Origin: Asterias rubens
Taxonomy: Eukaryota
Assembly: GCF_902459465.1 (NCBI RefSeq)
Contig: NC_047064.1
Span: 10,565,160 to 10,629,159, forward strand
Length of the DNA stretch: 64,000 nt
Reading direction: 5' to 3'
Shown: positions 1,181 through 59,424 of the stretch, in pieces
How positions within the stretch are numbered: the first letter of the stretch is position 1
Layout of the letters: each line of letters begins with the position of its first letter
Notes under the pieces: model-generated
What the model was told of the DNA's origin: nothing
Database searches by the model: none
Seen by the model: only the letters and a program-made list of their open reading frames with translations
Made by a program: the position numbers and the translations under genes

Positions 1181-1512
1181 TTTTGAAGGCAGTGGACACT
1201 ATTGGTATTTGTCAAAGACTAGACTTCACAGTTGGTGTATCTCAACATATGCATAAAATAACATCTGTCATCGAACTTGCGAGATAATAATGAAAGAAAA
1301 AACACCCTTGTCGCAAGAATTTGTGTGCGTTTAGATGGTTAATTTCGAGACCTCAAGGTGTATATCTGAGGTCTCGAAATCAAATTCGTGGAAAATTACT
1401 TCTTTCTCGAAAACTATGGCACTTCAGAGGGAGCCGTTTCTCAAAATGTTTTATACCATCAACCTCTCCCCATTACTCGTCACCAAGAAAGGTTTTATGC
1501 TAATAATTTAGT
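1181..1512 (+). mobile_element. MITE family 1 (TTAA-flanked; TIR AGGCAGTGGACACTATTGGTAAT)
   Basis: About 25-30-bp terminal inverted repeats, ggcagtggacactattggta at the left and tagtgtccactgcc at the right, with an internal palindrome cgagacctcaNNNtgaggtctcg. TTAA follows the right end. Confidence 0.8.
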
Positions 1513-2599
1513 GTCCACTGCCTTTAAAGTTCCTAATCTCGGATTCGGATCACACTGATGACGGCCAGTCCAATATATACCATCATGATCCATTATCGGA
1601 TCACATGGCACCATGATAATGTCATTGTTGCCAGTGTGAATGGTACAAAGGAGCGGTTCTGGGATGCTATGAATTTATTTAGTATTTTTCATTACAGATA
1701 TAGAGTGACTTTTGACACCGTTCGTATACCTTGGACACGTCGTACCTTCTAACAAGACACTTCGTACCTTCTTACAAGACACTTCGTACATTTTGCCTTT
1801 AAAGGCACTGGACACCTTTGATATCAGTCTTCTTAACATCTACATAACAAAATAAACCTGTGGAAATTTGAAACTCGATTGGATGTAGAAGTTGCGAGGG
1901 AACACCCATGTCCCACAAGTTCAATGAGGTCTCGACTTCAATTCGAATTATTTTAGTGAGAAATTATACTTCTTTCTCAAACACTATTATAGTTATTTCA
2001 TATGGCCATATGAAATAACTATAAAAGTGTTTGTGGGGAGCCGTTTCTCACAATGTTTTATACTACCAGCAGCTGCCAACTACATTGCTCATTACCATGT
2101 ATTTTGAGCAATTACCAATTATATAGTTTTTTTCCGGTAAAATTCGGCAAATGAGCAGCCAATTTCATTTTCATGCGTTCGAATTAAAGCTGTTTTGCCT
2201 CTCTAGTTGTTACTGCGTTTCAAATTCAGAATTCGGCCATTCAATTTCGTTTTGAGTCGAGTCAAATTCCTTTAGCACTATGTTCAATTTTGTGTATCGT
2301 CATTCTTTTTCGAGACACACACGGCTCAAGAAGCGACTGCGAATGTGAAGTGAATGCTGCTTTGATGAATTGTTAAATTGAATGATCATTTTGTTAAATC
2401 GAATGACGCAACATTACATTTGACTAATCATAAAACGAAATCGAATGACCCTTTTCAGTAGCATTCGATTTCGCGCGAAATAGAATAGCTTGGTGGTTGA
2501 ATTGGCTGCTCATTTGCCGAAATTGGCCAAGAAAACCTATAGTATCCATTTAAAAAAATTGGGCCAAGGTCATGCACCGAATGCTCGTTACATTTGGTT

Positions 2600-11947: not shown

Positions 11948-12235
11948 TTAAGCCTGCTGGAACAGGTGAGCTTTAAGGAGTGTCCTGAATGGGGTAAGTG
12001 AGCTTGCTTTTCTGATCTGTGTAGGAAGCTTGTTCCACATTTTTGGCCATATACAGAGAATGATCTCTCTGCAAAAGTTTTGGCACAACAAAAAGGGAGG
12101 AAGAGGTATAGACGAACGAAGATGTCTTTGTTGAGATTTAAATTTTGAGCATGTCCTTGATATATACAGGAGCTTGGTTATTGTACGCTTCAGGGGCGTC
12201 AGTCCGTCTTGAAAGATGGGTGGGGGACATAACAT
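11948..12235 (-). mobile_element. LINE (CR1/L2-like) 3' tail fragment
   Basis: The minus-strand ORF ends ..WNKLPTQIRKASSLTPFRTLLKAHLFQQA, the same conserved tail motif as the LINE fragment at 112-900. Confidence 0.6.
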
Positions 12236-19565: not shown

Positions 19566-19648
19566 AGACCGCCAACACTGGGCTGGATAGCGTAGTTGGT
19601 AGAGCGCCGGTTCGTTGATCCGGAGGTTTTTGGTTCAAGTCCCGCTCC
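19566..19648 (+). other. tRNA-like sequence, an inverted partner of 19411-19490
   Basis: The sequence is GGCTGGATAGCGTAGTTGGTAGAGCGCCGGTTCGTTGATCCGGAGGTTTTTGGTTCAAGTCCCGCTCCAGTCA. The 7-bp acceptor stem pairs and the anticodon stem pairs CCGG with CCGG, but the T stem is weak. It lies head-to-head with the other copy, 75 bp away. Confidence 0.35.
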
Positions 19649-20117
19649 AGTCATTTTTCTTTTATTCGAACCCAAACTAGTAAAAACTTATATTTAATTT
19701 TGTTCTTTGTAAACTTTGTGTTACATTCAACGAAGAGTACAAACAGCATTCAGCGCATGTTATGTTTGTAGTGTGAAAAGTCGTGGTTTGGTAGTGTGAA
19801 ATAGTTGAGTCAACTCTTGAAACCAAGCCGGAATGGAAAACTCTTGTACACAAGTAGCTATGGTTGTTCATTTTCTATTAATACGCCAAAATACAAAAAT
19901 ATTTGATCCAAAGCAACGTGTTCCTTTCAGAACCCATTTGGTTTCTTTATATTATTTTTAACTCTTTATGTTAAGCCGGGGCATAGTATTTTGTCAGCAA
20001 AGGCAGGGTTTAAAACATCTTAGTCGGTTAAGTTTGCCCACAGAAATAGACCTTGGGAAAACACTTCATAATTGCTCATGTGTAATCACTTGTTCAAACA
20101 ATTTATAATTATTTAAG

Positions 20118-20258: not shown

Positions 20259-20704
20259 GTGAGTTTTGGCTTTACCAAAAATGTTTCTAACACCCGGTTA
20301 AGATAGGCCCTCCAGAGTCACGCGAACTATAAAGAGATGAGGAGTGATTCTAGGTCGACCCAAAACAAAAAGTTATCAGGGAGGCAAACTTAAAATGACA
20401 TTTCATAGACTTTGGCTCCTTAGAAGATATACGTCTGAAACCCAGATGCTCCAAAGACATTCCAAATGTCTTCCCTTATAGTCGATCCCTTGGTCGTTTT
20501 TTTTGAGACATCGCCAAAAAAAACCACAAGTGAATATGTTCGTGCAGGAAGAATGATCCCTGTAACAAAATAGGAATACACAATCTAAGAAGGTCTCATT
20601 CGTAACCGCATTGCTTCGAAGTGAAATGTTTCTCAAGATGCTTTGTAACATCAAACACTGTTGTTGGCGTCTATCTAATAAGCAAAGGCCTAATTCATTT
20701 TAAA

Positions 20705-21088
20705 GACACTGGACACTATTGGTAATTGTCCAAGACTAGCCTTCACAGTTGGTGTGTCTCAACATATGCATAAAATAACAAACATGTGCAAATTTGAGCT
20801 TGATTGGTGTCGGAGTTGCGAGATAACTATGAAAGAAGAAAAACAGCCTTGTTACACGAAGTTGTGTGCTTTCAGATGCTTGATTTCGAGACCTAAAATT
20901 CTAAACTTGAGCTCTCGAAATCAAATTCGTGAAAAATTACTTCTTTCTCGAATACTACGTCACTTTAGAGAGAGCCGTTTCTCACAATGTTTTATACTAT
21001 CAACCTCTCTCCATAACTCGTTACCAAGTGAGGTTTTGTGCTGATAATTATTTTGAGTAATTACCAATAGTGTCCACTGCCTTTAAAG
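20705..21088 (+). mobile_element. MITE family 1 copy (full length, TTAA on both flanks)
   Basis: Ends ttTTAAagacactggacactattggtaattgtc and gtaattaccaatagtgtccactgcctTTAAag. Confidence 0.85.
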
Positions 21089-21094
21089 CCATTA

Positions 21095-21445
21095 TACACT
21101 TTCGGTACAGAAAAAAAAGAAAAAGTTCACAGATCTACAAATAATTTACAGGGTTTACAGAAGGTAATGGTGAAAGACTTATCTTGAAATATTATTCCAT
21201 GAAATGCTTTACTTTTTGAGAAAACATGAAAACAATATCAATTCTCGATAGCGAGAATTACGGATTTATTAATGACACGGCGAAACGTGGGGAGACAAGG
21301 GTGGGTTTTCCTGTTATTTTCTCCCGACTCCGATGACCGATTGAGCCTAAATTTTCACAGGTTTGTTATTTTATATATAAGTTGTGGTACACGAAGTGTG
21401 AGCCTTGGACAATATTGTTTACTGAAAGTGTCCAATGGCTTTAAG
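21095..21445 (-). mobile_element. MITE family 1b (related subfamily; TIR AAAGCCATTGGACAC)
   Basis: Shares the internal segment caatcggtcatcggagtcgggagaaaataac...aaattttcacaggtttgttatttta with family 1 but has a distinct internal region. Other copies are at 23350-23725, 57762-58075 and a partial one at 11735-11890. Confidence 0.7.
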
Positions 21446-22394: not shown

Positions 22395-22692
22395 TGTTAT
22401 GTTTTCTGTGTTTGTAATTACTAAAAATAATTACGAGCATAAAAACCGAAAGTAATCTGAAGTAATGTAGTTTCGAGACCTCAGTATTAGATTTTGAGGT
22501 CTCGAAATCAAGCATCTGAAAGCACACAACTTCGTGTGACAAGGGTGTTTTTTTCTTTCATTATTATCTCCCAACTTCGACGACCAATTGAGTTCGAATT
22601 TTCACAGGTCTGTTATTTTATGCATATGTTGAGATACACCAAGTGAGAAGACTGGTCTTTGACAATTACCAATAATGTCCAGTGTCTTTAAG
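22395..22692 (-). mobile_element. MITE family 1 copy (5'-truncated)
   Basis: Ends ...gacaattaccaataatgtccagtgtctttaagg. The terminus lies 25 nt upstream of the PARP4 exon acceptor at 22716-17. Confidence 0.75.
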
Positions 22693-22717
22693 GCTGTGGT
22701 CCGTATTTGGTTTGCAG

Positions 22718-22855
22718 TGAGGAACCTCTTGATATTAAGAGAATATTTGCCGCCACTCGAGGGATTGAAGAGGCATCATTTGACGGGACCATCGAAAACA
22801 ACCAACTCCTCCTCCACGGATCAAGACCAGCCACTTTCCTCGGAATTCTCTCAAG
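22718..22855 (+). CDS. PARP4: PARP4 exon (PARP catalytic domain, His motif)
   Basis: Translation EEPLDIKRIFAATRGIEEASFDGTIENNQLLLHGSRPATFLGILS carries the canonical LLHGSR...GIL motif with the catalytic His. Acceptor is tttgcag and donor is GTAAAT. Confidence 0.9.
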
Positions 22856-23349
22856 GTAAATGTCAAGTAATAGCTATCGACAAAATTGTCAGACTTGTAG
22901 TAGGGTAGTGTGATAGGGTGGAGCGTATTTGGGAATGGATTATGCACTGACTCCCTAATCAAAGGGCAAGTGTATTCCATCATTGCTTTCACATAAAAGA
23001 GAAACAAACTCACGCAATGTTCGAATACGCGCGAAGTTTGACTGGTCGAAAATTGTCCAGTCTCCACGTGCAGCACAGAATCAGGCATTTTGTATAAAAA
23101 GTACCCTCAAATAAGAAGAAAAATCATGGCATTGTTCTCTCCGCTGGAAAACAACATGCCCCCGTTTGATGACACCTTTGGTGAACAAATCCTGGCTACA
23201 ACGAGGCCTGTAGTAATGGTTCTTGACGTTGCTAAATGTCACAATTTCAACAAAAATTGTGATTGAAATATTTCTTTAGAGATGGGATTTTCATCGTTTA
23301 GCTAATTTATTTCAAGGCATCGTGCAATGCATGCTTATGTTATACGATT

Positions 23350-23725
23350 GTGTTAAAGCCATTGGACACTTTTGGTAAACAGTGTTGTCCAAAGGCCCAC
23401 ACTTCGTGTATCACAACTTGTATATAAAATAACAAACCTGTGAAAATTTAGGCTCAATCGGTCATCGGAGTCGGGAGAAAATAACGGGGAAAACCCACCC
23501 TTGTTTCCGCACGTTTCGCCGTGTCATGACATGTGTTTAAAATAAATCCGCAATTCTCGACAACGGGAATTGAGAATTGTTTAATGTTTTCTCAAAAAGT
23601 AAAGCATTTCATGGAATTATGTTTCAAGAGAAGTCTTTCACCACGACTTTCTGTAAACCCTGTAAGTTATTTGTAAATCTGTGAACTTTTTTTTCTGTTC
23701 CGAAAGTGTATAATGGCTTTAGAGA
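23350..23725 (+). mobile_element. MITE family 1b copy
   Basis: Ends gttaaagccattggacacttttggtaaacag and ccgaaagtgtataatggctttagag. Confidence 0.7.
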
Positions 23726-23869
23726 TGACTAGTGATTCCAGTAATGATTGATTGATCAATTGATGCCATGTAACAATAGTTTTGTCTACCTATTGGTAGT
23801 TCATTAATAAGGTTTTGTTATGTCATGGGACACAGTGACACCATTTCCATGCTTGTCTTATACTTCCAG

Positions 23870-23968
23870 GGGTTTGTTGTTACCGAAGATTGTTGTTGAA
23901 GAGTACGGTGGTTCTCGTCGAGATGCCGGTCTCCTTGGTCAAGGCATTTATTTTGCCGACAGAGTAAG
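23870..23968 (+). CDS. PARP4: PARP4 exon (catalytic domain, GIYFAD Tyr)
   Basis: Translation (R)GLLLPKIVVEEYGGSRRDAGLLGQGIYFADRV matches human GLLLPKVVEDRGVQRTDVGNLGSGIYFSDSL. Acceptor is cttccag and donor is GTAGGA. The phases match both neighbouring exons. Confidence 0.9.
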
Positions 23969-24791
23969 GTAGGACTTGTATGTGAGCCTTCTTTATTTGC
24001 ATATTTTGGTTTTTGCTAACTTATTACCCATAAAGAGCTGGCTTTGTTAAGGTAGGTTTGTTTTCATATTATGTTTACCGTAGGTGAACTTGTAAAAACG
24101 CAGGGTCTTACCACAAAATAAATAGAAAAGGAATGTTTATTCGAAGTAAGTGTAAAGGCCTATATTGTTGGATTCTATGATCTTTGTAACACTTAACCTT
24201 GTACTGATATTTCAATTCAACCTTTAGAATTCAATATTTCAACATCATTTATTTCAAAGCATTTTATAGCTGCAGAGGATCAACAGCTTTTGATGAACAA
24301 GCTATAGTAAGTCCAAATTCTATGAAAAGAAACATTACAAAGGAAAACAAGTCAAAAATTCCTACTAACAAAAATCTAATTAAAAATTACCACCGGGATC
24401 CCGGCTGTGAATTTTCCCGCCAGGAATCCAGGTTCTTCCTGATGACCTAAACTAGGATCTTAGTTTGAAACCGCAATCCCTCTATCCCGGGAGGAATCCC
24501 ATATTAATTGTCTATTTTCTTTATACAGTAAGCTTAGCAATATGAAACTGGTCCAGGTGGAAAACGGAGCGGCTCTTTTGATTTGAATTTTTTCATCACA
24601 AAACACTACATCTTTTCCGATCAAGATAAGCCGTGGTAGGACCTTAATAGTCTCAGGGTCTTAGTTTAGTTAGTGTTATTGCCTCCGTGAAAAAGGGTGC
24701 AAGGAAGTTAGTTTAAACCTGTGTCATTTGTGTCACATATTGTACATTGATTTGGACATGTAAAACTCCCTTATCATCTTCCATATTGCAG

Positions 24792-24981
24792 TACGGTTCA
24801 CCAATACTCACCACCTAGTCAGCAAGCCGGTACCAGACTAATGGTGATCAACAAGGTTGCCTTGGGAAACGTCAAGGAGCTGTACAAGTTTGATATGACT
24901 CTAAATCAGGCACCAGAGGGGCACCATAGTACCCATGGGGTCAGCAGTCGTTCTGCACACCCAATAGAGTCCGAGTTTGAG
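24792..24981 (+). CDS. PARP4: PARP4 exon (catalytic domain)
   Basis: Translation (S)TVHQYSPPSQQAGTRLMVINKVALGNVKELYKFDMTLNQAPEGHHSTHGVSSRSAHPIESEFE matches human STSIKYSHPGETDGTRLLLICDVALGK...APPGYDSVHGVSQTASVTTDFE. Donor is GTACAT. Confidence 0.9.
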
Positions 24982-36454: not shown

Positions 36455-36780
36455 CCGACGGGATCCCACCGGAAATCCCGACGGGATCCCACCGGGAATT
36501 CCGACGGGATCCCACCGGGAATTCCGACGGGATCCCACCGGGAATTCCGACGGGATCCCACCGGGAATCCCGACGGGATCCCACCGGGAATTCCGACGGG
36601 ATCCTACCGGGAATCCCGATGGGATCCCACCGGGAATTCCGACGGGATCCCACCGGGAATCCCGATGGGATCCCACCGGGAATCCCGATGGGATCCTACC
36701 GGGAATCCCGATGGGATCCCACCGGGAATCCCGACGGGATCCTAACGGTTTTCGAAAGGGATCCCAGCAGAATCCCGGTT
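36455..36780. repeat. 23-bp minisatellite (CGACGGGATCCCACCGGGAATTC)n, about 14 copies, in a PARP4 intron
   Basis: The tandem units each contain the palindromes GGGATCCC and GGAATTCC, with variant cgatgggatcctacc units. The overlapping ORFs (GIPGGIPSEFPVGSRR...) are artefacts. Confidence 0.95.
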
Positions 36781-37112
36781 TGGGACCGGATCTGTGGCTT
36801 TATCATTTGGCCCCAAAACATTGAAAGAATGCATCCTTCCGGTGAAACATATCAATTGCACATTATGAAATAATTGCAGGCAAAATTAAAGGAACATCGC
36901 ACCCTTTTTAAGGGGCTCAGTGGCGTGATTCATACAATTTTGTTCCTCTGCCTAAAGTGCTCAACTATATTATTTGCCCACTATAGTGTATTATTTTATG
37001 CATGCGTGAATACAATAAGCATGTTCAAAGGGAAGAGTCAATTAAAATGGTTTATTTAATTTAGATTAAACTTTGAAAACAAATAATCAAAACAAAATCC
37101 TGCCTGGAACAG

Positions 37113-37295
37113 ATAATCCACAAGTTGGCAGCACATGCTGTGATCAGAGACTGGGAAGAGGGCGTCCTTCACGCTGACCGCCCGGAACACGAGGCTCAAA
37201 AGCATAAGCTTACATCACGAATTGTAGAGCTGAGCATTCGCCATTCGATCGTGACGCCTATGACAAGCTTCATAGCAGTTGAAGAAAGAGAAGAA
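37113..37295 (+). CDS. PARP4: PARP4 exon
   Basis: Translation IIHKLAAHAVIRDWEEGVLHADRPEHEAQKHKLTSRIVELSIRHSIVTPMTSFIAVEEREE matches human MIHKLAARALIRDYEDGILHENETSHEMKKQTLKSLIIKLSKENSLITQFTSFVAVEKRDE. Donor is GTAAGG. Confidence 0.95.
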
Positions 37296-37433
37296 GTAAG
37301 GAGATATGATGGTGTTGTAACATGAAATACAAAGTACAGGGTAGATATATTTCTATGGGGGGGGGACAATCTAAAAGCTCACTGTACAGATAATAATACC
37401 AGTACCAAAATCTCCAAATGCCGTCTGACCAGG

Positions 37434-37641
37434 GCCCGATTTCATAAAGCCTGTAAGCACAAATATTTGCTAAGCATGAAATTTGTCCCTTCATAAAAAC
37501 AGGATTACCAAACCAAATTTCCACGTGATTTTCAGGATAAGGAACACATTAAAATTTGGTTGGTAATCTTGTTTTTATCAAGGAAGAAATTTCATGCTCA
37601 GCAATTTTTTGTGCTTACAGGCTTTATGAAATTGGGCCCTG
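37434..37641. mobile_element. MITE family 4 copy
   Basis: Ends gggcccgatttcataaagcctgtaagcac and gtgcttacaggctttatgaaattgggccc. Confidence 0.8.
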
Positions 37642-37924
37642 AAGACACAAAAGAAGACGCCAGAAATCGAGTTTCTTATTTTGATTGCTGCAATCGAAAT
37701 ATAGTGTGGTTAATTTGAACACTCAGCATTGGATTTTGTTCCCCTTAATTTGACCATCGCAGTTTACCATGCCTGGTTACGTGGGTCCCCCCCCCCAAAC
37801 CTATTTCTTATAGTTTCTAGAATTACCCCCCCCCCCCCAGTTCTCCAAGTTTTTAGCACACTATATTTACCCCTTTGCGGTTGATTTGTATGTCTTTTTT
37901 TTCGCGTTCCTTGGGATTCATGTT

Positions 37925-38175
37925 TTTCAAAATGTTCCACGAATTTGATTTCGAGACCTCAGAATTAGATTTCGAGGGCACGAATTCAAGCATCTGAAAG
38001 CGCACAACTTCGTGTTAAAAGGGTTGTTTTTTCTTCCATTGTTATCTCGCAACTTCGACGACCAATTGAGTTCAAATTTCACAGTTTTTTTGTATACATA
38101 ATAAATGTTCAGATACACCAAGTGGGAAGACTGGGTCTTTGACAATTACCAATAGTGGCCAGTGTCTTTAACCAT
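37925..38175 (-). mobile_element. MITE family 1 copy (partial)
   Basis: Ends gacaattaccaatagtggccagtgtctttaacc. The terminus is 25 nt upstream of the PARP4 exon acceptor at 38199-200. Confidence 0.7.
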
Positions 38176-38200
38176 CCATCCTGATTGCATTTATATCAAG

Positions 38201-38335
38201 GAAGAGCAGAGGCAGCTTGCAGAAGGCCAAAAGCTAGAATTGCTTCAAACCGTGGAAGATCTTCTCTCATCAGAAGAGGTTGATCAGCTGCCAACCCTAA
38301 ACTGGAAGGAGCCCAGTGTAGCCAAACACCCGGAG
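38201..38335 (+). CDS. PARP4: PARP4 exon
   Basis: Translation EEQRQLAEGQKLELLQTVEDLLSSEEVDQLPTLNWKEPSVAKHPE is loosely collinear with human ..KVSELIAKEDVDFLPYMSWQGEPQEAVRNQ. Donor is GTGAGT. The phase is consistent. Confidence 0.75.
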
Positions 38336-38465
38336 GTGAGTTTGTAGGCGGCAATGGCAACTATTCACCGGGCGGTTCATACGTCAACGCCCTGTTTTCG
38401 CTGCGAATGTTTCAACTGATGCGATTTATTCGTCGTGAATTTGTGATGTCAAAGTTCAGATCGCA

Positions 38466-38676
38466 TTCGCAGTAAATCCCGGTTCATACTTCCTGCGAAT
38501 GCGAATGCGAAAGCGAATTTGACGTAAATTTGATGTCATAACCCTCCTTTCGCAGCGATATTCGCAAGTGAGTTGAGCAAAGTTGAACTGCTGCGAATTG
38601 TTCGTTGCGAATTTGTGATGTCAACATATTGGCTTCGCATTCGCATTCGCACAGGAAGTATGAACCGGGATTTATA
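38466..38676. mobile_element. Tourist-like MITE family 2 (TIR GGCCCGGTTCATACTTCCTGCGAATGCGAATGCGAA, TAA/TTA flanks)
   Basis: Roughly 35-bp TIRs, cccggttcatacttcctgcgaatgcgaatgcgaa at the left and ttcgcattcgcattcgcacaggaagtatgaaccggg at the right, flanked by TAA and TTA. A partial second copy lies adjacent at 38350-38460, and the element starts about 15-35 nt after the PARP4 exon donor at 38336. Confidence 0.8.
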
Positions 38677-39596
38677 TGCCCAAATATTAAGGTAGTCTTT
38701 AAGGAAGGGGTCATAATTTGTGGTAAAAACCTTGAACAAATAAGTGTTTTATTTTCATCTGAAAGCTTACTTTTTATAAAGATTGTAGTGATAGTATAGT
38801 AAGCATCCTGCAACATTATTTGGTCTGGAGTCCCCTTCGTTGATAAGAAATAAATAAAATTACTTTCAACAAGTTTTAATCTCAAAAGAATCCTTGACGC
38901 TAGTTTTGGAAATTCAAATTTATCTGGTGTCTGGTTAAATACTGCGTCTATAAAGATGTGGTTGGTACCCACTTTTACTTTCTAATAATCAAATGGATTC
39001 GATACTCCACTCATATTTTGGCAAAATAGGAAGACTCTAACAAAGAACTTGATCTATATACAACTCAGTTGGTACAGAGCACTGGCACTTTAAACCGGAG
39101 GTCGCTTGTTCAAATCCCGCTCTATTTCGTGTTCAAGCTCAAATCATTTAAAATGTTACCCAGTCTCTTTCCCTTGTGGTTTATACCCGTTTCATCAAAG
39201 GACAATAATCTGCAATGGCCCTTTAGCCAAATATCGTTCTCATGACATACTCTGACTAAAGGCCCGGTCACACAGGCCTCGATAACGAGAACGAAAATGA
39301 GGGCGATTCAACTAATCGAGGGCGTGCATGTTTATCGTTCTCATTTTTTTTGGTATCGAATTCCTAGCTGATATCATTATAAAGACACAATCCCATCACA
39401 AAAATGTCATACTACAAAATGAGTGATTCCTAGAACATACAGAGCTCTACAAGTGTAATTTACCTCGCCAAAACAATCAATCTAACATAAAAATGACTTG
39501 GATGATGATTTATCTAGTCAATATTTATAGATAGCATCTTGCAAGACTTCTTTAATGTATCTTGAACCATTTCCCGGATCCTCTCTATACCAGTAA

Positions 39597-39785
39597 AGCC
39601 CGGTTCATACGTCATGAATGCCAATGCGAAGCGAATTTGACTTGAACTATCCCCCCCCCCCCCCCCTTGCAGCGAGATTCGCAAGTGAGTTGAGCAGAGG
39701 GCAACCCACTTGCGAAGATCGCTGCGAATTTTTGACGTCGACGTTCGCTGCGCATTCGCATTCGCAGGAAGTATGAACCGGGCTT
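39597..39785. mobile_element. MITE family 2 copy (contains a C17 tract)
   Basis: The same TIRs, flanked by TAA on both sides. Located about 50 nt upstream of the PARP4 exon at 39837. Confidence 0.8.
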
Positions 39786-39836
39786 AATGTAATAAAATAA
39801 GGTAAACTGCAATTATTTGACCTCGTTTGATTGCAG

Positions 39837-39986: not shown

Positions 39987-40184
39987 GTAAATATCTGTCT
40001 AATTTCATCGTATTTTCCTATAGTTTCAATGAGACAACTTGAGCTCTTCTTGTGTCTGATCAGCAGACCGTGGGTTCGAGTCCCGGTTGTTACATTAACG
40101 TGTCATTGAGCAAGCCACTAAAACTATTAATAATTGCTTTGTTATTCGGACGCGACGGTGTTATAAAAAAATATCAACGCTTAA

Positions 40185-40560
40185 AGGCACTATGGAGACT
40201 ATTGGTAATTACTCAAAATAATTGTTAGCATAAAAACTTACTTGGTAACGAGCAATGGAGAGCTGTTGATGGTTCAAATCATTGAGAAACGGCTCCCTCT
40301 GAAGTAACGTAGTTTTCGAGAAAGAAGTAATTTCCCACTAAAACATTGTAATTTGATTTTGCGACCTCATAATTAGATTTGAGGTCCCAAAATCAAGCAT
40401 CTGAAAGCACACAACTTGTGACAGGGGTGTTTTTTCTTCCTCTATTATCTCGCAACTTCAAATTTTCGCAGGTTTGTTGTTTTGTGCATATGTTGAGATA
40501 CACAAAGTGAGAAGACTGGTTTGGCGATTGCTAGTGTCCAGTGTCTTTTAGGACACTCTT
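40185..40560 (-). mobile_element. MITE family 1 copy
   Basis: Begins ttaaaggcactatggagactattggtaattactc and has the family-1 internal palindrome. Confidence 0.7.
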
Positions 40561-43714: not shown

Positions 43715-44100
43715 CTTAAAGACACTGGACACTACTGGTAATTGTCAATGACCAGGTGGTGCATCTCAACATATGGTGCATATTTGATGCACTTGGTGCA
43801 TCTCAACATATACATAAAATAACAAACCTGTGAAAATTTGATCTCAATATTGGTCGTCGAAGTTGCGAGTTAATAATGGAAGAAAACAATACCCTTGTCA
43901 CACGAAGTTGTGTGCTTTCAGATGCTTGATTTCGAGACTTTAAAATCTTATTGAGGTATTGAAATCAAATTCATGGAAAATTACTCTTTATCACAATCAA
44001 GTTTCATACTACCAACAGCTCTCCATTGCTTGTTACCAAGTAAGTTTTTATGCTCTAGCATTTATTTTGAGTTATTCCAAAATAGTGTCCACTGCATTTA
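43715..44100 (+). mobile_element. MITE family 1 copy
   Basis: Ends cttaaagacactggacactactggtaattgtcaatgacc and tattccaaaatagtgtccactgcatttaaac. Confidence 0.75.
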
Positions 44101-44217
44101 AACACACCCAAACAAACAATATATTTTCCCCTCCCCCAAGTAAAATGTCCTTAATAATAATTGCGCAATATTTAAAGCCTCACAATATTGTTGGTTTTGG
44201 TTGCAATGAAGGTGTAG

Positions 44218-44318: not shown

Positions 44319-44684
44319 GTAAATACAAATTTTGTTCTCAATTCTTTTCATTTGAGGGTCAAGCGTTTTATTAAAAAAAGGGGCTCACGTTGCCAGATTG
44401 TACACAAATGTAGCTTGAACGATGGTTCAACAATACTGATGTTTTCCCATGCCCCTTAAATATGCTTATTTCGATTGCTTGCAGGTGTGATATAGAAATA
44501 AGCAACGTATGATGGGTTGGAGGGGAGTTGTCTCAACAGTGCTATTTTCTCAGACCCGAATATTTTCCTTGAAGAAAGGTTAAATTTTCAATCAGTGCGT
44601 TTCCAAATTGCAACTTTATCAAATTGTTTTCGATAATTCCAATGGGCCTGCAGTACTTTGTATTTAATATGTTGCTGCTGTTTC

Positions 44685-44995
<311 letters not shown>

Positions 44996-45102
44996 GTTTT
45001 AGGGGGGAGAGACACTCCGATATTTCTGTATGAATAGTAGAATAATGGGGTTGGCATTTAACTGAATTCACAACTGTTACAGTTAATTGTTTTCTTTTTT
45101 AG

Positions 45103-46097
45103 TGTGTACAGAGTCGATGGTAACCATTGAAGTTCTCACACAAGCTATAGAAATAGAAATCCCAGCTTCACCCGAATTAGTCATGATGGAAGACTTCCCT
45201 GTAGTACTACAAGAAGAATGGAGGCCGGAACCAAAAGAATTGGACCTTTTGCCATCCGTGGTGGTGCGAAAGAAAGAAGTGCATTACGAACCAGCTGTTG
45301 AAACCCCAAAACGTAAGCCTAAGAATGTGTTTACGAAATTAGCACTCCGGCTTAAGAAAAGTATTCGTCGCAAATCACTTGAGCTTCGTGAAGAAGAGTT
45401 GGAGGACAACTTGCTGAAACCTGCCTTGACGGCGCGAAAGAAAGCAGCGTCTTACAAGCCACCTCATGCAGAACTAAAAGTTATGTCCTTGGAAGATACT
45501 TTGGACGAGACGGAACTAGAGATGACAAGGCCAACTTCTAAGAGCTCTCGGGAAAAGAAAATGAAACAAAAGTCTAGCCATGAAATGCATCGCGATACAT
45601 GTACACTAGATAACGAGCCCCTGGCCCGTCTCACCGAAGGTATCACACGTCCTCCCCTCCCAAGAACAGAACATCATTACCCACGCGCTCTGTCTGAACC
45701 CTCTCCACTCCCACATCCACACCCGCTTCCAGGAGAACCTTACCTACCCGCTCAGTCTGTACCCGCTCCACCCCCACACCCACCCCTCCAAGGGGCACCC
45801 GCACAGTATGTACCCGCTTCACCCCCACCTCGATCTCTTGGATCCCTACCTCGATCCCTACCGGCAGTCCCCCTGCCAGGGGCAAGTTGGGATAGATTAC
45901 AATCAGAGGAGGAGCGATCCAGTGTGCCACGGGAGAGTCTCAAAATGGCGGCAGAAATTGGGATGGCTGACATGGGGATGGCTGACATGGGGATGGATGG
46001 TATGGGGATGGATGATATGACGATGTGTGCTCTATCTATAGATCAACCAAGAGGGATGTCGACCAACACAGAATGCCTCCTTAGCATGCAAGGACAG
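45103..46097 (+). CDS. PARP4: PARP4 large exon (proline-rich and acidic region preceding the MVP-interaction domain)
   Basis: A 995-nt open frame begins after the acceptor ttttcttttttag. It contains a KK/EE-rich segment, a PxP-rich segment (PLPHPHPLPGEPYLPAQSVPAPPPHPPLQGAP) and an (MADMG)n-like repeat. It ends LLSMQGQ|GTGGGT, which aligns with human LLSLQTE|DGFWKL at the junction to the next exon. Confidence 0.85.
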
Positions 46098-56340: not shown

Positions 56341-56354
56341 GTGAGGCTTAAAGC

Positions 56355-56515
56355 AAATATAAAGCCAGGTTCATACTTCGCTGCAGGTTTTCGCTGCTAC
56401 ATTCGCAAGAGAGTTGAGCACAGCTCAAATCCTGCGAATTATTCATTGCAAATTTATGACCTCAACATTCTTTATCGCCTTCGCAGGAAGTATGAACCGG
56501 GCTTTATGCTTCCCA
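56355..56515. mobile_element. MITE family 2 copy (shorter) in AGPS intron 4
   Basis: TIRs agccaggttcatacttcgctgcag and cgcaggaagtatgaaccgggct, flanked by TAA and TTA. It starts 15 nt after the AGPS exon 4 donor. Confidence 0.75.
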
Positions 56516-58854
56516 CTTTAGTTTGATTTTAGATTTGTTTGCACTTGCAGGGTTTGCCCTTAAATTTGTTAATGACAAGTCAGCAGGACCAGTGTTGTTG
56601 ACTCGAGTCGCTTACTTGGACTCGAGTTGCCAATTTCATTGTCTTGCAACTTGACTTGACTTGGGAAAAAATAACTTGTAACTTGCATTGACGTTGGTCG
56701 GGAAAGAAATGACATGTGTCTTGACTTGACTTGAGGGAATTTGACTTGAGGCTTGACTTGACTTGCACAAAAGTTAATTGAGAGTTTAAGAATTGACTCG
56801 AATAAGTTTGACTTTACGACAATGCAATTATTGTTTAAAATGGATGTGGTAAAATTTAGTCTTTGGCGATTATGTCGCCCTGACATTCCAATTTTTTCAA
56901 GGGCTTTTGTCATAAGGCTGATCATTTAATCTTCACAGATATTGAGACCAAGGGTGCATGATTTATGGGTTGAATTTATTATTAGTAAATTGTCTTTTTA
57001 CAGGGTTTGTAGATTGTAAAACTGAAAAAGGTTACGTCTGATTTTAACCCCCTCCCCCCTAGTGCACAGTTGGTAACAATTGTGGGAATGTTTAATTTTT
57101 GAACCACGCTAAATTGTTCAATAGACTGTATTGAATATGACATCACCGTTCAAATATCTGCCCTACAAAATGGCGTCTGTGAGCGTGTGCATGTGTGTGT
57201 GCGTTTGTGTGTGCGTGCTTGTGCCATTGAAACCAAACCAGGAATGCTGTGTGCTGCGTGTTTCTTTGATGTACACGTTTAGACGCGCATATGGTTTGCC
57301 CTACAAGATGGCGTCTTAAAGATACATGGTCTATTGAAGATACATTTACCAGCCTGGAATAGTACACAAAATGTATTTTTTAAAGATGTCTGACAGTTTC
57401 ACACTTTGGAAGTCGGACTGTCAGATCAAAGTGCAATAATCGTCACTTTGTGTGCTCTGAGGTCAAAGTATTATCTGTTTGTCAAAAGGATTGATAAATT
57501 TGTTGTCATCTGTAAACATGTAGATTGCATTGATCAGACAATGGCTGTTTTGCATGTACGTAACTGTAACAAAGCGGCACTTGGGAAATCTCATTGATTA
57601 CGGAGCAAACCAGATAGCATCTCTCATTCAGTGGGGTGATTTACTGCGGTCAAAGTCCTACAGGAACATGTCTAGAGAATTATGAGGCTGTCAAGTTCTG
57701 TAACTGTGAAGGAAGTCTTAATTTCTGTCAAAAAGTGGAATTCCTTTAGCGTCACCTGTCCTAAAGCCATTAGACACTGTCGGTAAACAGATTGTCCAAA
57801 GGCCCACACTCTATGTATCACATGACAACTTATATAAAATAACAAACCTGTGAAAATTAAGGCTCAATCGGTCATCAGAGTCGGGAGAAAATAACGGGAA
57901 AACCCACCCTTGTTTCCGCACGTTTCGCCGCGTCATGACATGTGTTTAAAATAAATCCGTAATTCTCGATATCGAGGATTGATAATTGTTTTAATGTTTT
58001 CACAAAAAGTAAAGCATTTCATGCATCTGTGAACCCTTTTTTGTCTGTTCCGAAAGTGTCCAATCGCTTTAAAATGTACAATGGCTGATGATGGGTTAGG
58101 GTGTATATCATGATCATATATATATGTAGGTAAAGACTGAATGGTTACGTTTGTAGAGTAATTTTTTAGCTGTTCTAGGCCCAATTTCATGGAGCTGCTT
58201 AACAGTAAGCTGCACACTAACAACGTATTGCAATGATGTTGCACTTTGCGCTGTGCTTAAACACTGTGCTTAGAAGAAAATTGGGGTTTGAAGAACCCTC
58301 TTCGCTTGCTTATAACCGCTTAAAGCAAAAAAACCTGGGTGAAACAAGGCCATGAATGAAAATTGTGATTGGGTAACATTGTCGGTCAGAGTCCAAGTGT
58401 GACTCACACAGTAAATGCTGATAGGGCTCCACTTGCATTATTATCCCACAACTTCGACGACCACTTGAGTTCAAATTTTCACAGGTTTGTTATATTTTGT
58501 GCATGTTGAGACGCACCAAGTGAGGAGACTGGTCTTTGACAATTACCAAAGGTGTCCAGTGTCTTGAAGAGACTTTTTTGTCGTTGTTTGGTGATACGAT
58601 TGAGACCTTGATGCGCATAAAAACATTAACAGATAATATATCAAACGCACATTTTAGAGCTTGAATATGAGGTGATTAGAAATAATTTACCAAAACTGAA
58701 ACTCCTAAAAAATTGTGATTTAAAATCTTAATAGATGTTAAATTTGCATCGGGGATAAAACCAAAATTAATATTCTTTATCCCCGATGCAAATTTAACAT
58801 CTATTATATCGTTGCGGTACCCGCTGCCAAAACATAGGATTCGAACTGCCTCTA

Positions 58855-58945
58855 GCTGCCGGGCAACCTCGGTAGTCTAGTTGGTAAGACACTGCTCTAG
58901 AATTGCAACGGTCGTGGGTTCGAATCCCACCCGAGTAACATGCCT
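58855..58945 (+). other. tRNA-derived SINE-like segment
   Basis: The segment has a perfect T arm GTGGGTTCGAATCCCAC and a D arm GTCTAGTTGGTAAGAC, but no canonical anticodon stem. A similar segment lies at 9995-10100, and a weaker one at 2830-2905. Confidence 0.4.
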
Positions 58946-59424
58946 GTGATATTTTTTCACAGGACTCGGGAAGTACTGAGTATACAGTGCTAACACACAT
59001 CGATTTAGTTTTTTTAGATGTATCTTAAGAATTTATTTATCAGCGAGTTGATAATACTGTAAAAAAAAATTGATCAGATTAAACAGAATCAACATTATTT
59101 AACTCAATTAAATCCATTGTTTACTTCCATATTACCAGAAAAGTGCTTACACAATACAAAGTGTTAGTGTTTGGTAATTTATACATTGCGTAAAAAGATA
59201 AGTGATTAGTTTGTTTATAGGATTAACTTCAGGTTATAACATCATTCAGGATGACAACATTTCATAACTTCAATCAATTAATGGGTATCAAAAGTTGGTG
59301 TTGCAAAATAGTTCAAAGAAAAAAGGGGAACACTTTGCATTTGTCATGTTAGCAGCTTTTTCAATGGCTCTAAGTTTTGTTGAGTGGGTCTACATACATT
59401 GTACCTGAAACCACCAAAAATGTG

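Follow-up and report, generated by a model that had tools for sequence, protein, structure and literature searches.

Within a window of 64,000 nucleotides (nt) of Asterias rubens contig NC_047064.1, we examined miniature inverted-repeat transposable elements (MITEs) of one family, family-1, that end close to splice sites of the gene PARP4. The window is eukaryotic DNA with a G+C content of 35-45%, and a protein predicted on its forward (+) strand is colinear with residues 262-1217 of human PARP4 (PDB 11jf_P; E=8e-209). A second + strand gene, starting at ~52.6 kb, matches residues 89-212 of AGPS (4bby_A) in one stretch (E=5e-38); by this colinear homology, a first-pass annotation of the window had named both genes correctly. 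The exon chain was predicted ab initio on the + strand and then corrected by homology, and the curated set comprises 31 introns (median length, 885 nt). Among the ab initio calls, 26932-27094, 36417-36777 and the start of the exon at 37113 were wrong and were corrected by alignment to human PARP4; exons between 38336 and 45112 are predictions only, and the C-terminal third of PARP4 is poorly conserved. Three family-1 copies end 26-33 nt upstream of PARP4 acceptors, and we consider them probably to be ordinary, lineage-specific insertions of a non-autonomous, TTAA-flanked MITE into PARP4 introns that already existed. These copies, with the state of their terminal inverted repeats (TIRs), and the acceptors next to them are:

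22400..22691, + strand: family-1 copy 1, with a degenerate 5' TIR, an internal deletion and an intact 3' end ...CCAGTGTCTTTAA
22716-17 and 22718-22855, + strand: acceptor AG and PARP catalytic-domain exon, 26 nt from the end of copy 1 to the exon
27892..28326, + strand: family-1 copy 2, a foldback derivative of two 3'-type ends
28358-59 and 28360-28578, + strand: acceptor AG and VIT-domain exon, 33 nt from the end of copy 2 to the exon
37931..38171, + strand: family-1 copy 3, 5'-truncated, consensus positions 150-387, ending ...CCAGTGTCTTTAA
38199-200 and 38201-38335, + strand: AG of an AAG acceptor and its exon, 29 nt from the end of copy 3 to the exon

Upon aligning the translated exons to human PARP4, we found no residues missing or extra at the junctions of all three acceptors; the junction ...METKS/SEEPLD at exon 22718 is colinear with the human protein, and the acceptor at 38201 is further backed by uninterrupted sister-species sequence in which both exons are fused in frame. 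The first-pass annotation had placed the family-1 termini 25, 34 and 25 nt upstream of the acceptors. The proximity is real, while the distances themselves were off by 1-4 nt, and that of copy 2 becomes ~30 instead of 33 nt if the junction is taken as the TTAA at 28326-29. Copy 1 aligns to consensus positions 146-387 with 7.1% substitutions. Copy 2 consists of a reverse-complemented 3' end (27892-27945) and a forward 3' part (27946-27997 and 28280-28326), and within it, at 27998-28279, is nested a 3' fragment of a long interspersed nuclear element (LINE) with the C-terminus of open reading frame 2 (ORF2; ...WNSLPYHIRTANTTSSFKTVLKTHLF), a 3' untranslated region and an (ATT)n tail. The LINE fragment is flanked by about AAGAC, and similar ORF2 tails occur elsewhere in the window at 115-909 and 11951-12235, both on the reverse (-) strand. 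Copy 3 is also present in contig L004, which, together with L001, derives from the Banyuls (SOLA) seawater metagenome; both contigs are 97-99% identical to the window, which places them by sequence in the same species. In its TIR end, at 38166, copy 3 shows a C/T difference between the window and L004.

The family-1 consensus measures 387 base pairs (bp), with TIRs of ~30-37 nt; it starts with TTTAAAGGCAGTGGACACTATTGGTAATTAC... at the 5' end and runs at the 3' end through ...GTAATTGTCAAAG... to the last letters CACTGYCTTTAA. In at least nine copies the 5' TTTAAAGGCAGTGGACACTATTGGTAATTAC pairs with the 3' ...AATTACCAATAGTGTCCACTGYCTTTAA, as MITE TIRs do, and at least 8 of 11 copies retain a TTAA at each end, usually as TTTAAA. 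Self-comparison of the window revealed ~18 family-1 copies or fragments, with nine family-1 copies and two related ones inside PARP4; the related family has the 3' half of family-1 in common. Full copies span 347-390 bp and differ from the consensus by 5-10%; in two divergent copies the difference is 18-19%. The small size, the many dispersed copies of uniform length and the absence of coding capacity, as judged from size, are all those of a MITE, so that the earlier classification held, given the TIRs, the 387-bp consensus and the TTAA at the ends. A short interspersed nuclear element (SINE) was considered and rejected: a first alignment had shown constant 3' ends and apparently truncated 5' ends, and extending the copies produced the 387-bp element with TIRs. 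Truncated copies do exist, yet full copies have symmetric ends, and no Rfam tRNA match was found within any family-1 copy. The TTAA at the ends is palindromic and could be either a target-site duplication (TSD) or part of the TIR; an empty paralogous site was sought for the family-1 copies and none was found, nor does an orthologous one resolve the TTAA. MITEs of the piggyBac type target TTAA and have CCC...GGG termini. Family-1 resembles them in its TTAA at both ends, the A/T-rich context (mostly T before and A after the TTAA), the short TIRs and the length of ~390 bp. No autonomous partner was seen.

Comparison with a sister species provided a direct view of one acceptor without the element. 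The assembly GCA_014845345.1 (JACSEG; contigs L002 and L003) represents a sister species, ~90% identical to the window in exons. Contig L002 aligns from position -26 of the intron through exon 28360, that is, across the same acceptor; the last 26 intron nt are identical at 19/26 positions (73%), a TTTATAT motif at about -34 to -40 is common to both species, and the 265 nt available upstream of the sister acceptor are free of family-1 sequence. The orthologous-intron comparison that the first-pass annotation had proposed thus found, at 28360, an acceptor present without the insertion, and the TIR is therefore not required there. As the copies lie 5-10% from their consensus while the introns of the two species can be aligned only next to exons, the family-1 insertions would be younger than the species split and younger than the working acceptors. 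In the sister species' downstream intron, at 800-900 of L003, lies a sequence distantly related to the core of family-1 (...ctttcacaggt...); the family in its wider sense is therefore older than the species split, though the individual insertions would not be.

The TTAA at which family-1 ends also resembles a branch-site motif. The branch-site consensus is yUnAy. Among 28 non-focal introns, positions -12 to -42 were enriched over deep intron 2.5 times for TTAA and 3.3 times for TTAAY, with a TTAA density of ~0.016 per nt in the last 50 intron nt versus 0.0074 overall, and many acceptors carry TTAAC or TTAAT at -15 to -36, fitting the consensus. When pentamers at canonical distance were scored for likeness to yUnAy, the best ones at all three focal acceptors fell exactly on the junction between MITE and flank, namely TTAAG at -27 (copy 1), TTTAT/TTAAG at -37/-31 (copy 2) and TTAAC at -30 (copy 3); which adenosine would serve as the branch point we judge from these motif positions.

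These junctions bear on a proposal made in the first-pass annotation, that the TIR end, described as pyrimidine-rich, supplies branch-point or polypyrimidine context. If the end were exapted in this way and retained for it, copy 1 would fit, its only adenosines at a plausible branch-point distance being those of the terminal TTTAA (-27/-28), as would copy 3, whose junction TTAAC at -30 is a perfect yUnAy, and so would the intactness of the acceptor-proximal end in all three copies, two of which have lost the distal TIR. We nevertheless consider such exaptation quite unlikely. The sister species has the 28360 acceptor, with conserved proximal sequence, without any MITE; the insertions would be younger than the acceptors they adjoin; and the candidate motif is the junction TTAA itself, which would have been present before insertion if TTAA is the target site. 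Moreover, the TIR end is only 57% pyrimidine and thus not notably pyrimidine-rich, the flank of copy 3 has a CTGAT of its own at -17, and other families and donor sites show elements equally close. A TIR contribution is accordingly not a requirement at 28360 and is unnecessary at the other acceptors, although at copy 1 a weak form, in which the element end carries the branch site, has to be allowed for. The alternative put forward along with it, that insertions were tolerated only where these signals were recreated, provides a better fit, as the junction TTAA or TTTA forms the best branch-site-like pentamers.

In our preferred reading, that of ordinary insertions into older introns, three effects would jointly place some ends 26-33 nt from acceptors: target availability, purifying selection, and small numbers in growing introns. 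The element is bounded by TTAA, and branch-site-like TTAA(Y) is concentrated 12-42 nt upstream of acceptors, so that suitable targets would abound there. An insertion between branch site and AG would separate the two by ~390 nt and be lost, whereas one that struck the branch-site TTAA or lay upstream of it would leave TTAA beside an unchanged flank, with branch site, pyrimidine tract and AG intact. With downstream insertions lost and those at TTAA tolerated, the closest survivors would therefore be found at about -25 to -35. Later insertions would in addition inflate introns away from their splice sites, and a null model based on present intron length would for that reason understate how often such positions arise by chance. 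What we observed directly is the anatomy and location of the elements, the enrichment of TTAA(Y), one orthologous acceptor that lacks the MITE, and a like clustering of other families and at donors; that TTAA is the target-site duplication, that selection played a role and which adenosine is the branch point are inferred.

The acceptor-proximal copies did not prove to be older, an idea that we rejected: they diverge from the consensus by 5-12%, compared with 5-10% for the others, and are neither older nor better conserved than the rest. They differ in the distal (5') TIR, which is lost in two of the three (22400-22444, 37925-37935) versus one of the nine others. This loss may reflect selection against a hairpin that would sequester the branch region, or chance; at n=3 it is a lead only.

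We quantified how far the observed positions exceed chance under several null models, with P values that are nominal, since distance window, side and family were chosen post hoc:

Uniform placement in the present intron, 11 intronic family-1 copies, 20-40 nt from the acceptor: 3 observed, 0.33 expected, P=0.003
Uniform placement in the present intron, 11 intronic family-1 copies, at most 40 nt: 3 observed, 0.64 expected, P=0.02
Uniform placement in the present intron, 11 intronic family-1 copies, at most 100 nt: 3 observed, 1.58 expected, P=0.18
Choice among TTAA sites in emptied introns, family-1 copies, 20-40 nt: 3 observed, 0.99 expected, P=0.056
Insertion points on the non-repeat backbone, all 23 repeat blocks, 20-40 nt: 3 observed, 0.75 expected, P=0.034
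The same backbone null with half taken as undetected inserted DNA, 23 repeat blocks, 20-40 nt: 3 observed, 1.6 expected, P=0.20

The earlier estimate that roughly 0.5 termini would fall in such a range by chance was about right, uniform placement giving 0.33-0.64. The TTAA-site null is biased towards itself, with the occupied site counted among the candidates, and the backbone null is the fairer model where introns grow by accretion. Undetected inserted DNA in the backbone is likely, because self-similarity within 64 kb missed the nested LINE, which was spotted only by eye. As there are three cases in all, and the P values depend on the null model and are uncorrected for the post-hoc choices, the family-1 excess near acceptors is suggestive but not established.

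Proximity to splice sites was not confined to these three copies, and further elements lie near donors and other acceptors:

33486..33856, + strand: family-1 copy diverging by 18% from the consensus, with its start 37 nt past the donor at 33449
38368..38680, + strand: Tourist-like elements, partial and complete, with TIR AAATCCCGGTTCATACTTCCTGCGAATGCG, starting ~32 nt after the donor at 38336
56361..56510, + strand: Tourist-like copy of the same family as 38368-38680, starting ~20 nt after the AGPS donor at 56341
21090..21445, + strand: family-1-related MITE with the shared 3' half, ending 52 nt upstream of the acceptor of exon 21498
39591..39789, strand unassigned: Tourist-like copy ending 47 nt upstream of exon 39837, an exon predicted only, without homology support

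The three donor-side cases had been reported in the first-pass annotation and are present as claimed, except that the AGPS exon is number 3 in our map rather than 4. Altogether, Tourist-like and family-1 elements start 20, 32, 37 and 49 nt after four donors, and a family-1 copy at 1182-1528 (-) ends ~52 nt upstream of a C-type lectin acceptor (exon start 1129, -). The closest element end is 26 nt from an acceptor and ~20 nt from a donor. The Tourist-like elements at 38368-38680 are absent at the corresponding sister-species site. Within the Tourist-like MITE after donor 38336, we also observed a ~100-nt insertion-deletion polymorphism between the window (~38460-38560) and L004 (640-660). Splice-site proximity is thus specific neither to family-1 nor to acceptors, and, being common to several families and to donors, it points to a general cause rather than to a property of one TIR.

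One such cause could be a true insertion bias next to exon-intron boundaries, irrespective of function, which would predict a genome-wide excess near both splice sites and might operate through nucleosome-free linkers flanking exon-positioned nucleosomes or through TTAAY branch-site targeting. Once element boundaries were corrected, a splice site lay no more than 40 nt from an end of 6 of the 23 repeat blocks, and the backbone null on self-similarity boundaries counted 5 against ~1.9 expected; several unrelated families are involved, and the TTAA(Y) enrichment near acceptors offers a concrete target. Against this, the sample is one 64-kb window with two genes, and the excess vanishes once young inserted DNA is assumed to make up half of the remaining backbone. 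Searching 64 kb for self-similarity also leaves some repeats undetected, as it did the nested LINE, and the donor-side elements belong to a different family, whose target site may be another. We regard a true insertion bias as unlikely.

Several points weigh against our preferred reading of ordinary insertions. Under the backbone null, P is ~0.03 for acceptors and, with both kinds of splice site and a limit of 40-60 nt, 0.006-0.03, so there may be a real splice-site-proximal preference, unless much of the backbone is undetected inserted DNA. At copy 1, the 26-nt flank contains a single A, at about -13, and because the flank is nearly devoid of adenosines the terminal TTTAA/TTAA of the element probably contains the branch point that is used. 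The TTAA is a candidate TSD of family-1, and the termini that follow it, AGGCAGTGG...CCACTGCCT, read AGGCAG...CTGCCT rather than the 5'-CCC...GGG-3' next to TTAA of piggyBac-type elements. Finally, transposable elements in mammals are depleted within 50-100 bp of exons through selection (Zhang, Romanish and Mager 2011, PMC3088655). The mammalian hazardous zones are alike to the present case in that purifying selection would shape the persistence of intronic elements near splice sites; they differ in that mammalian DNA transposons and SINEs are depleted to 50-100 bp, whereas here several ends lie at 20-52 nt and the introns are short. The local mild excess seen here runs counter to that depletion.

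The intron that carries copy 3 varies between the two species and raised the question of intron creation:

37296..38200, + strand: phase-0 intron GTAAGG...TCAAG, 905 nt, holding copy 3 and a 212-nt palindromic MITE at 37430-37641

In the sister contig L003 (300-340), exons 37113-37295 and 38201-38335 are fused exactly and both neighboring introns are kept. Huff et al. 2016 reportedly described introner elements, that is, DNA transposons or MITEs that create introns. The same type of element, DNA transposons or MITEs creating introns, is the subject of Gozashti et al. (2022, bioRxiv 10.1101/2022.06.06.494994). The likeness to introners lies in short non-autonomous DNA transposons within introns of a marine eukaryote and in one intron that varies between sister species; the difference is that the host introns here are much larger than the element and older. 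That a MITE, or DNA carrying a MITE, created intron 37296-38200 would account for the exactly fused exons and retained flanking introns of L003, for the unusual AAG acceptor and for an intron that is a mosaic of repeats. However, a phase-0 intron is found at VAVEKR/DENES, two codons upstream of the window's IAVEEREE/EEQ, in contig L007 (ERZ781269 NODE-1336), a metagenome contig with a mammalian PARP4 fragment of three exons that is 89-100% identical to the human protein and presumably stems from a host or from contamination. Both intron positions lie in an E-rich stretch adjoining an insertion-deletion. Since the mammal has an intron of the same phase two codons away, the simplest reading is loss rather than gain: the intron would be ancient and would have been lost precisely in the sister species. 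The MITE ends also lie away from the splice sites, and intron 37296-38200 itself shows no TIRs and no convincing TSD, so that we rejected intron gain here and find an introner-like origin extremely improbable. More broadly, element ends in the window lie 26-1004 nt from splice sites, introns measure 479-1506 nt compared with 241-435 nt for the elements, the one variable intron has a mammalian counterpart, and the intron before 28360 is present in the sister species without the element. A protein-database search for outgroup fragments of exons 22718, 37113 and 38201 returned only the same and the sister species, with L005 and L006 falling outside the region.

Further family-1 copies lie away from splice sites:

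20699..21087, - strand: full-length family-1 copy, mid-intron
25650-26039, 34085-34444, 40181-40548 and 43716-44102: other family-1 copies

We made additional observations on the surrounding sequence. Within intron 35743-37112, at 36452-36777, units of a tandem repeat, (RRDPTGNPDGIPPGIPTGSHREF)n, form an open reading frame; the gene finder had called it as an exon, which we rejected, as it is not needed for colinearity with human PARP4. A long simple-sequence tract at ~44590-45030, in the intron directly upstream of the 986-nt exon 45112-46097, yields poly-L, poly-Q, poly-A/V and poly-S/N in its six-frame translations. The segment 32001-34000, within the 1924-nt intron 31425-33348, is strongly asymmetric between strands, with an AT skew of -0.30 and a GC skew of +0.14, and self-comparison of the window found no repeat there. 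Two tRNA matches above the Rfam gathering score, 19581-19653 and 58866-58938 (+), may represent a tRNA-derived SINE rather than tRNA genes; at least the match at 58866-58938 is inside a 164-nt two-copy repeat (58799-58962). Below 5 kb, several C-type lectin exons are found on the - strand.

Splice signals derived from transposable elements are known: antisense Alu poly-U tracts serve as 3' splice-site context, and the ends of maize Ds/dSpm are spliced as introns. Our case has in common with them the idea that element termini give a branch site, a pyrimidine tract or splice sites. In those systems, however, the sites belong to new exons or introns, whereas here the acceptors are constitutive, conserved and older, and the element lies upstream of the 3' splice-site unit.

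What the window shows is a set of ordinary MITE insertions into introns, lying at the margin of where insertions are tolerated. As by-products, the analysis validated the exon map of PARP4/AGPS, defined a consensus for the MITE and brought to light one clear case in which a sister species lost an intron precisely. The one idea here of genome-wide interest is the coincidence of TTAA with the branch-site motif. In its strongest form, TTAAY would be the branch-site motif of this genome and TTAA-flanked MITEs would integrate into branch sites genome-wide, with the junction TTAA acting as branch point for many constitutive acceptors, a scenario that we hold to be decidedly improbable. If true, transposon ends would be found at -25 to -35 of 3' splice sites in the thousands, and selection would favor the loss of the distal TIR, seen here in two of three copies, because it prevents hairpins from sequestering the branch site. 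Should a genome-wide excess prove real, the transposon target TTAA and the branch-site TTAAY would coincide, making branch sites insertion hot spots at which insertions survive through the TTAA left at the junction, and insertion preference and splicing constraint would jointly shape intron architecture.

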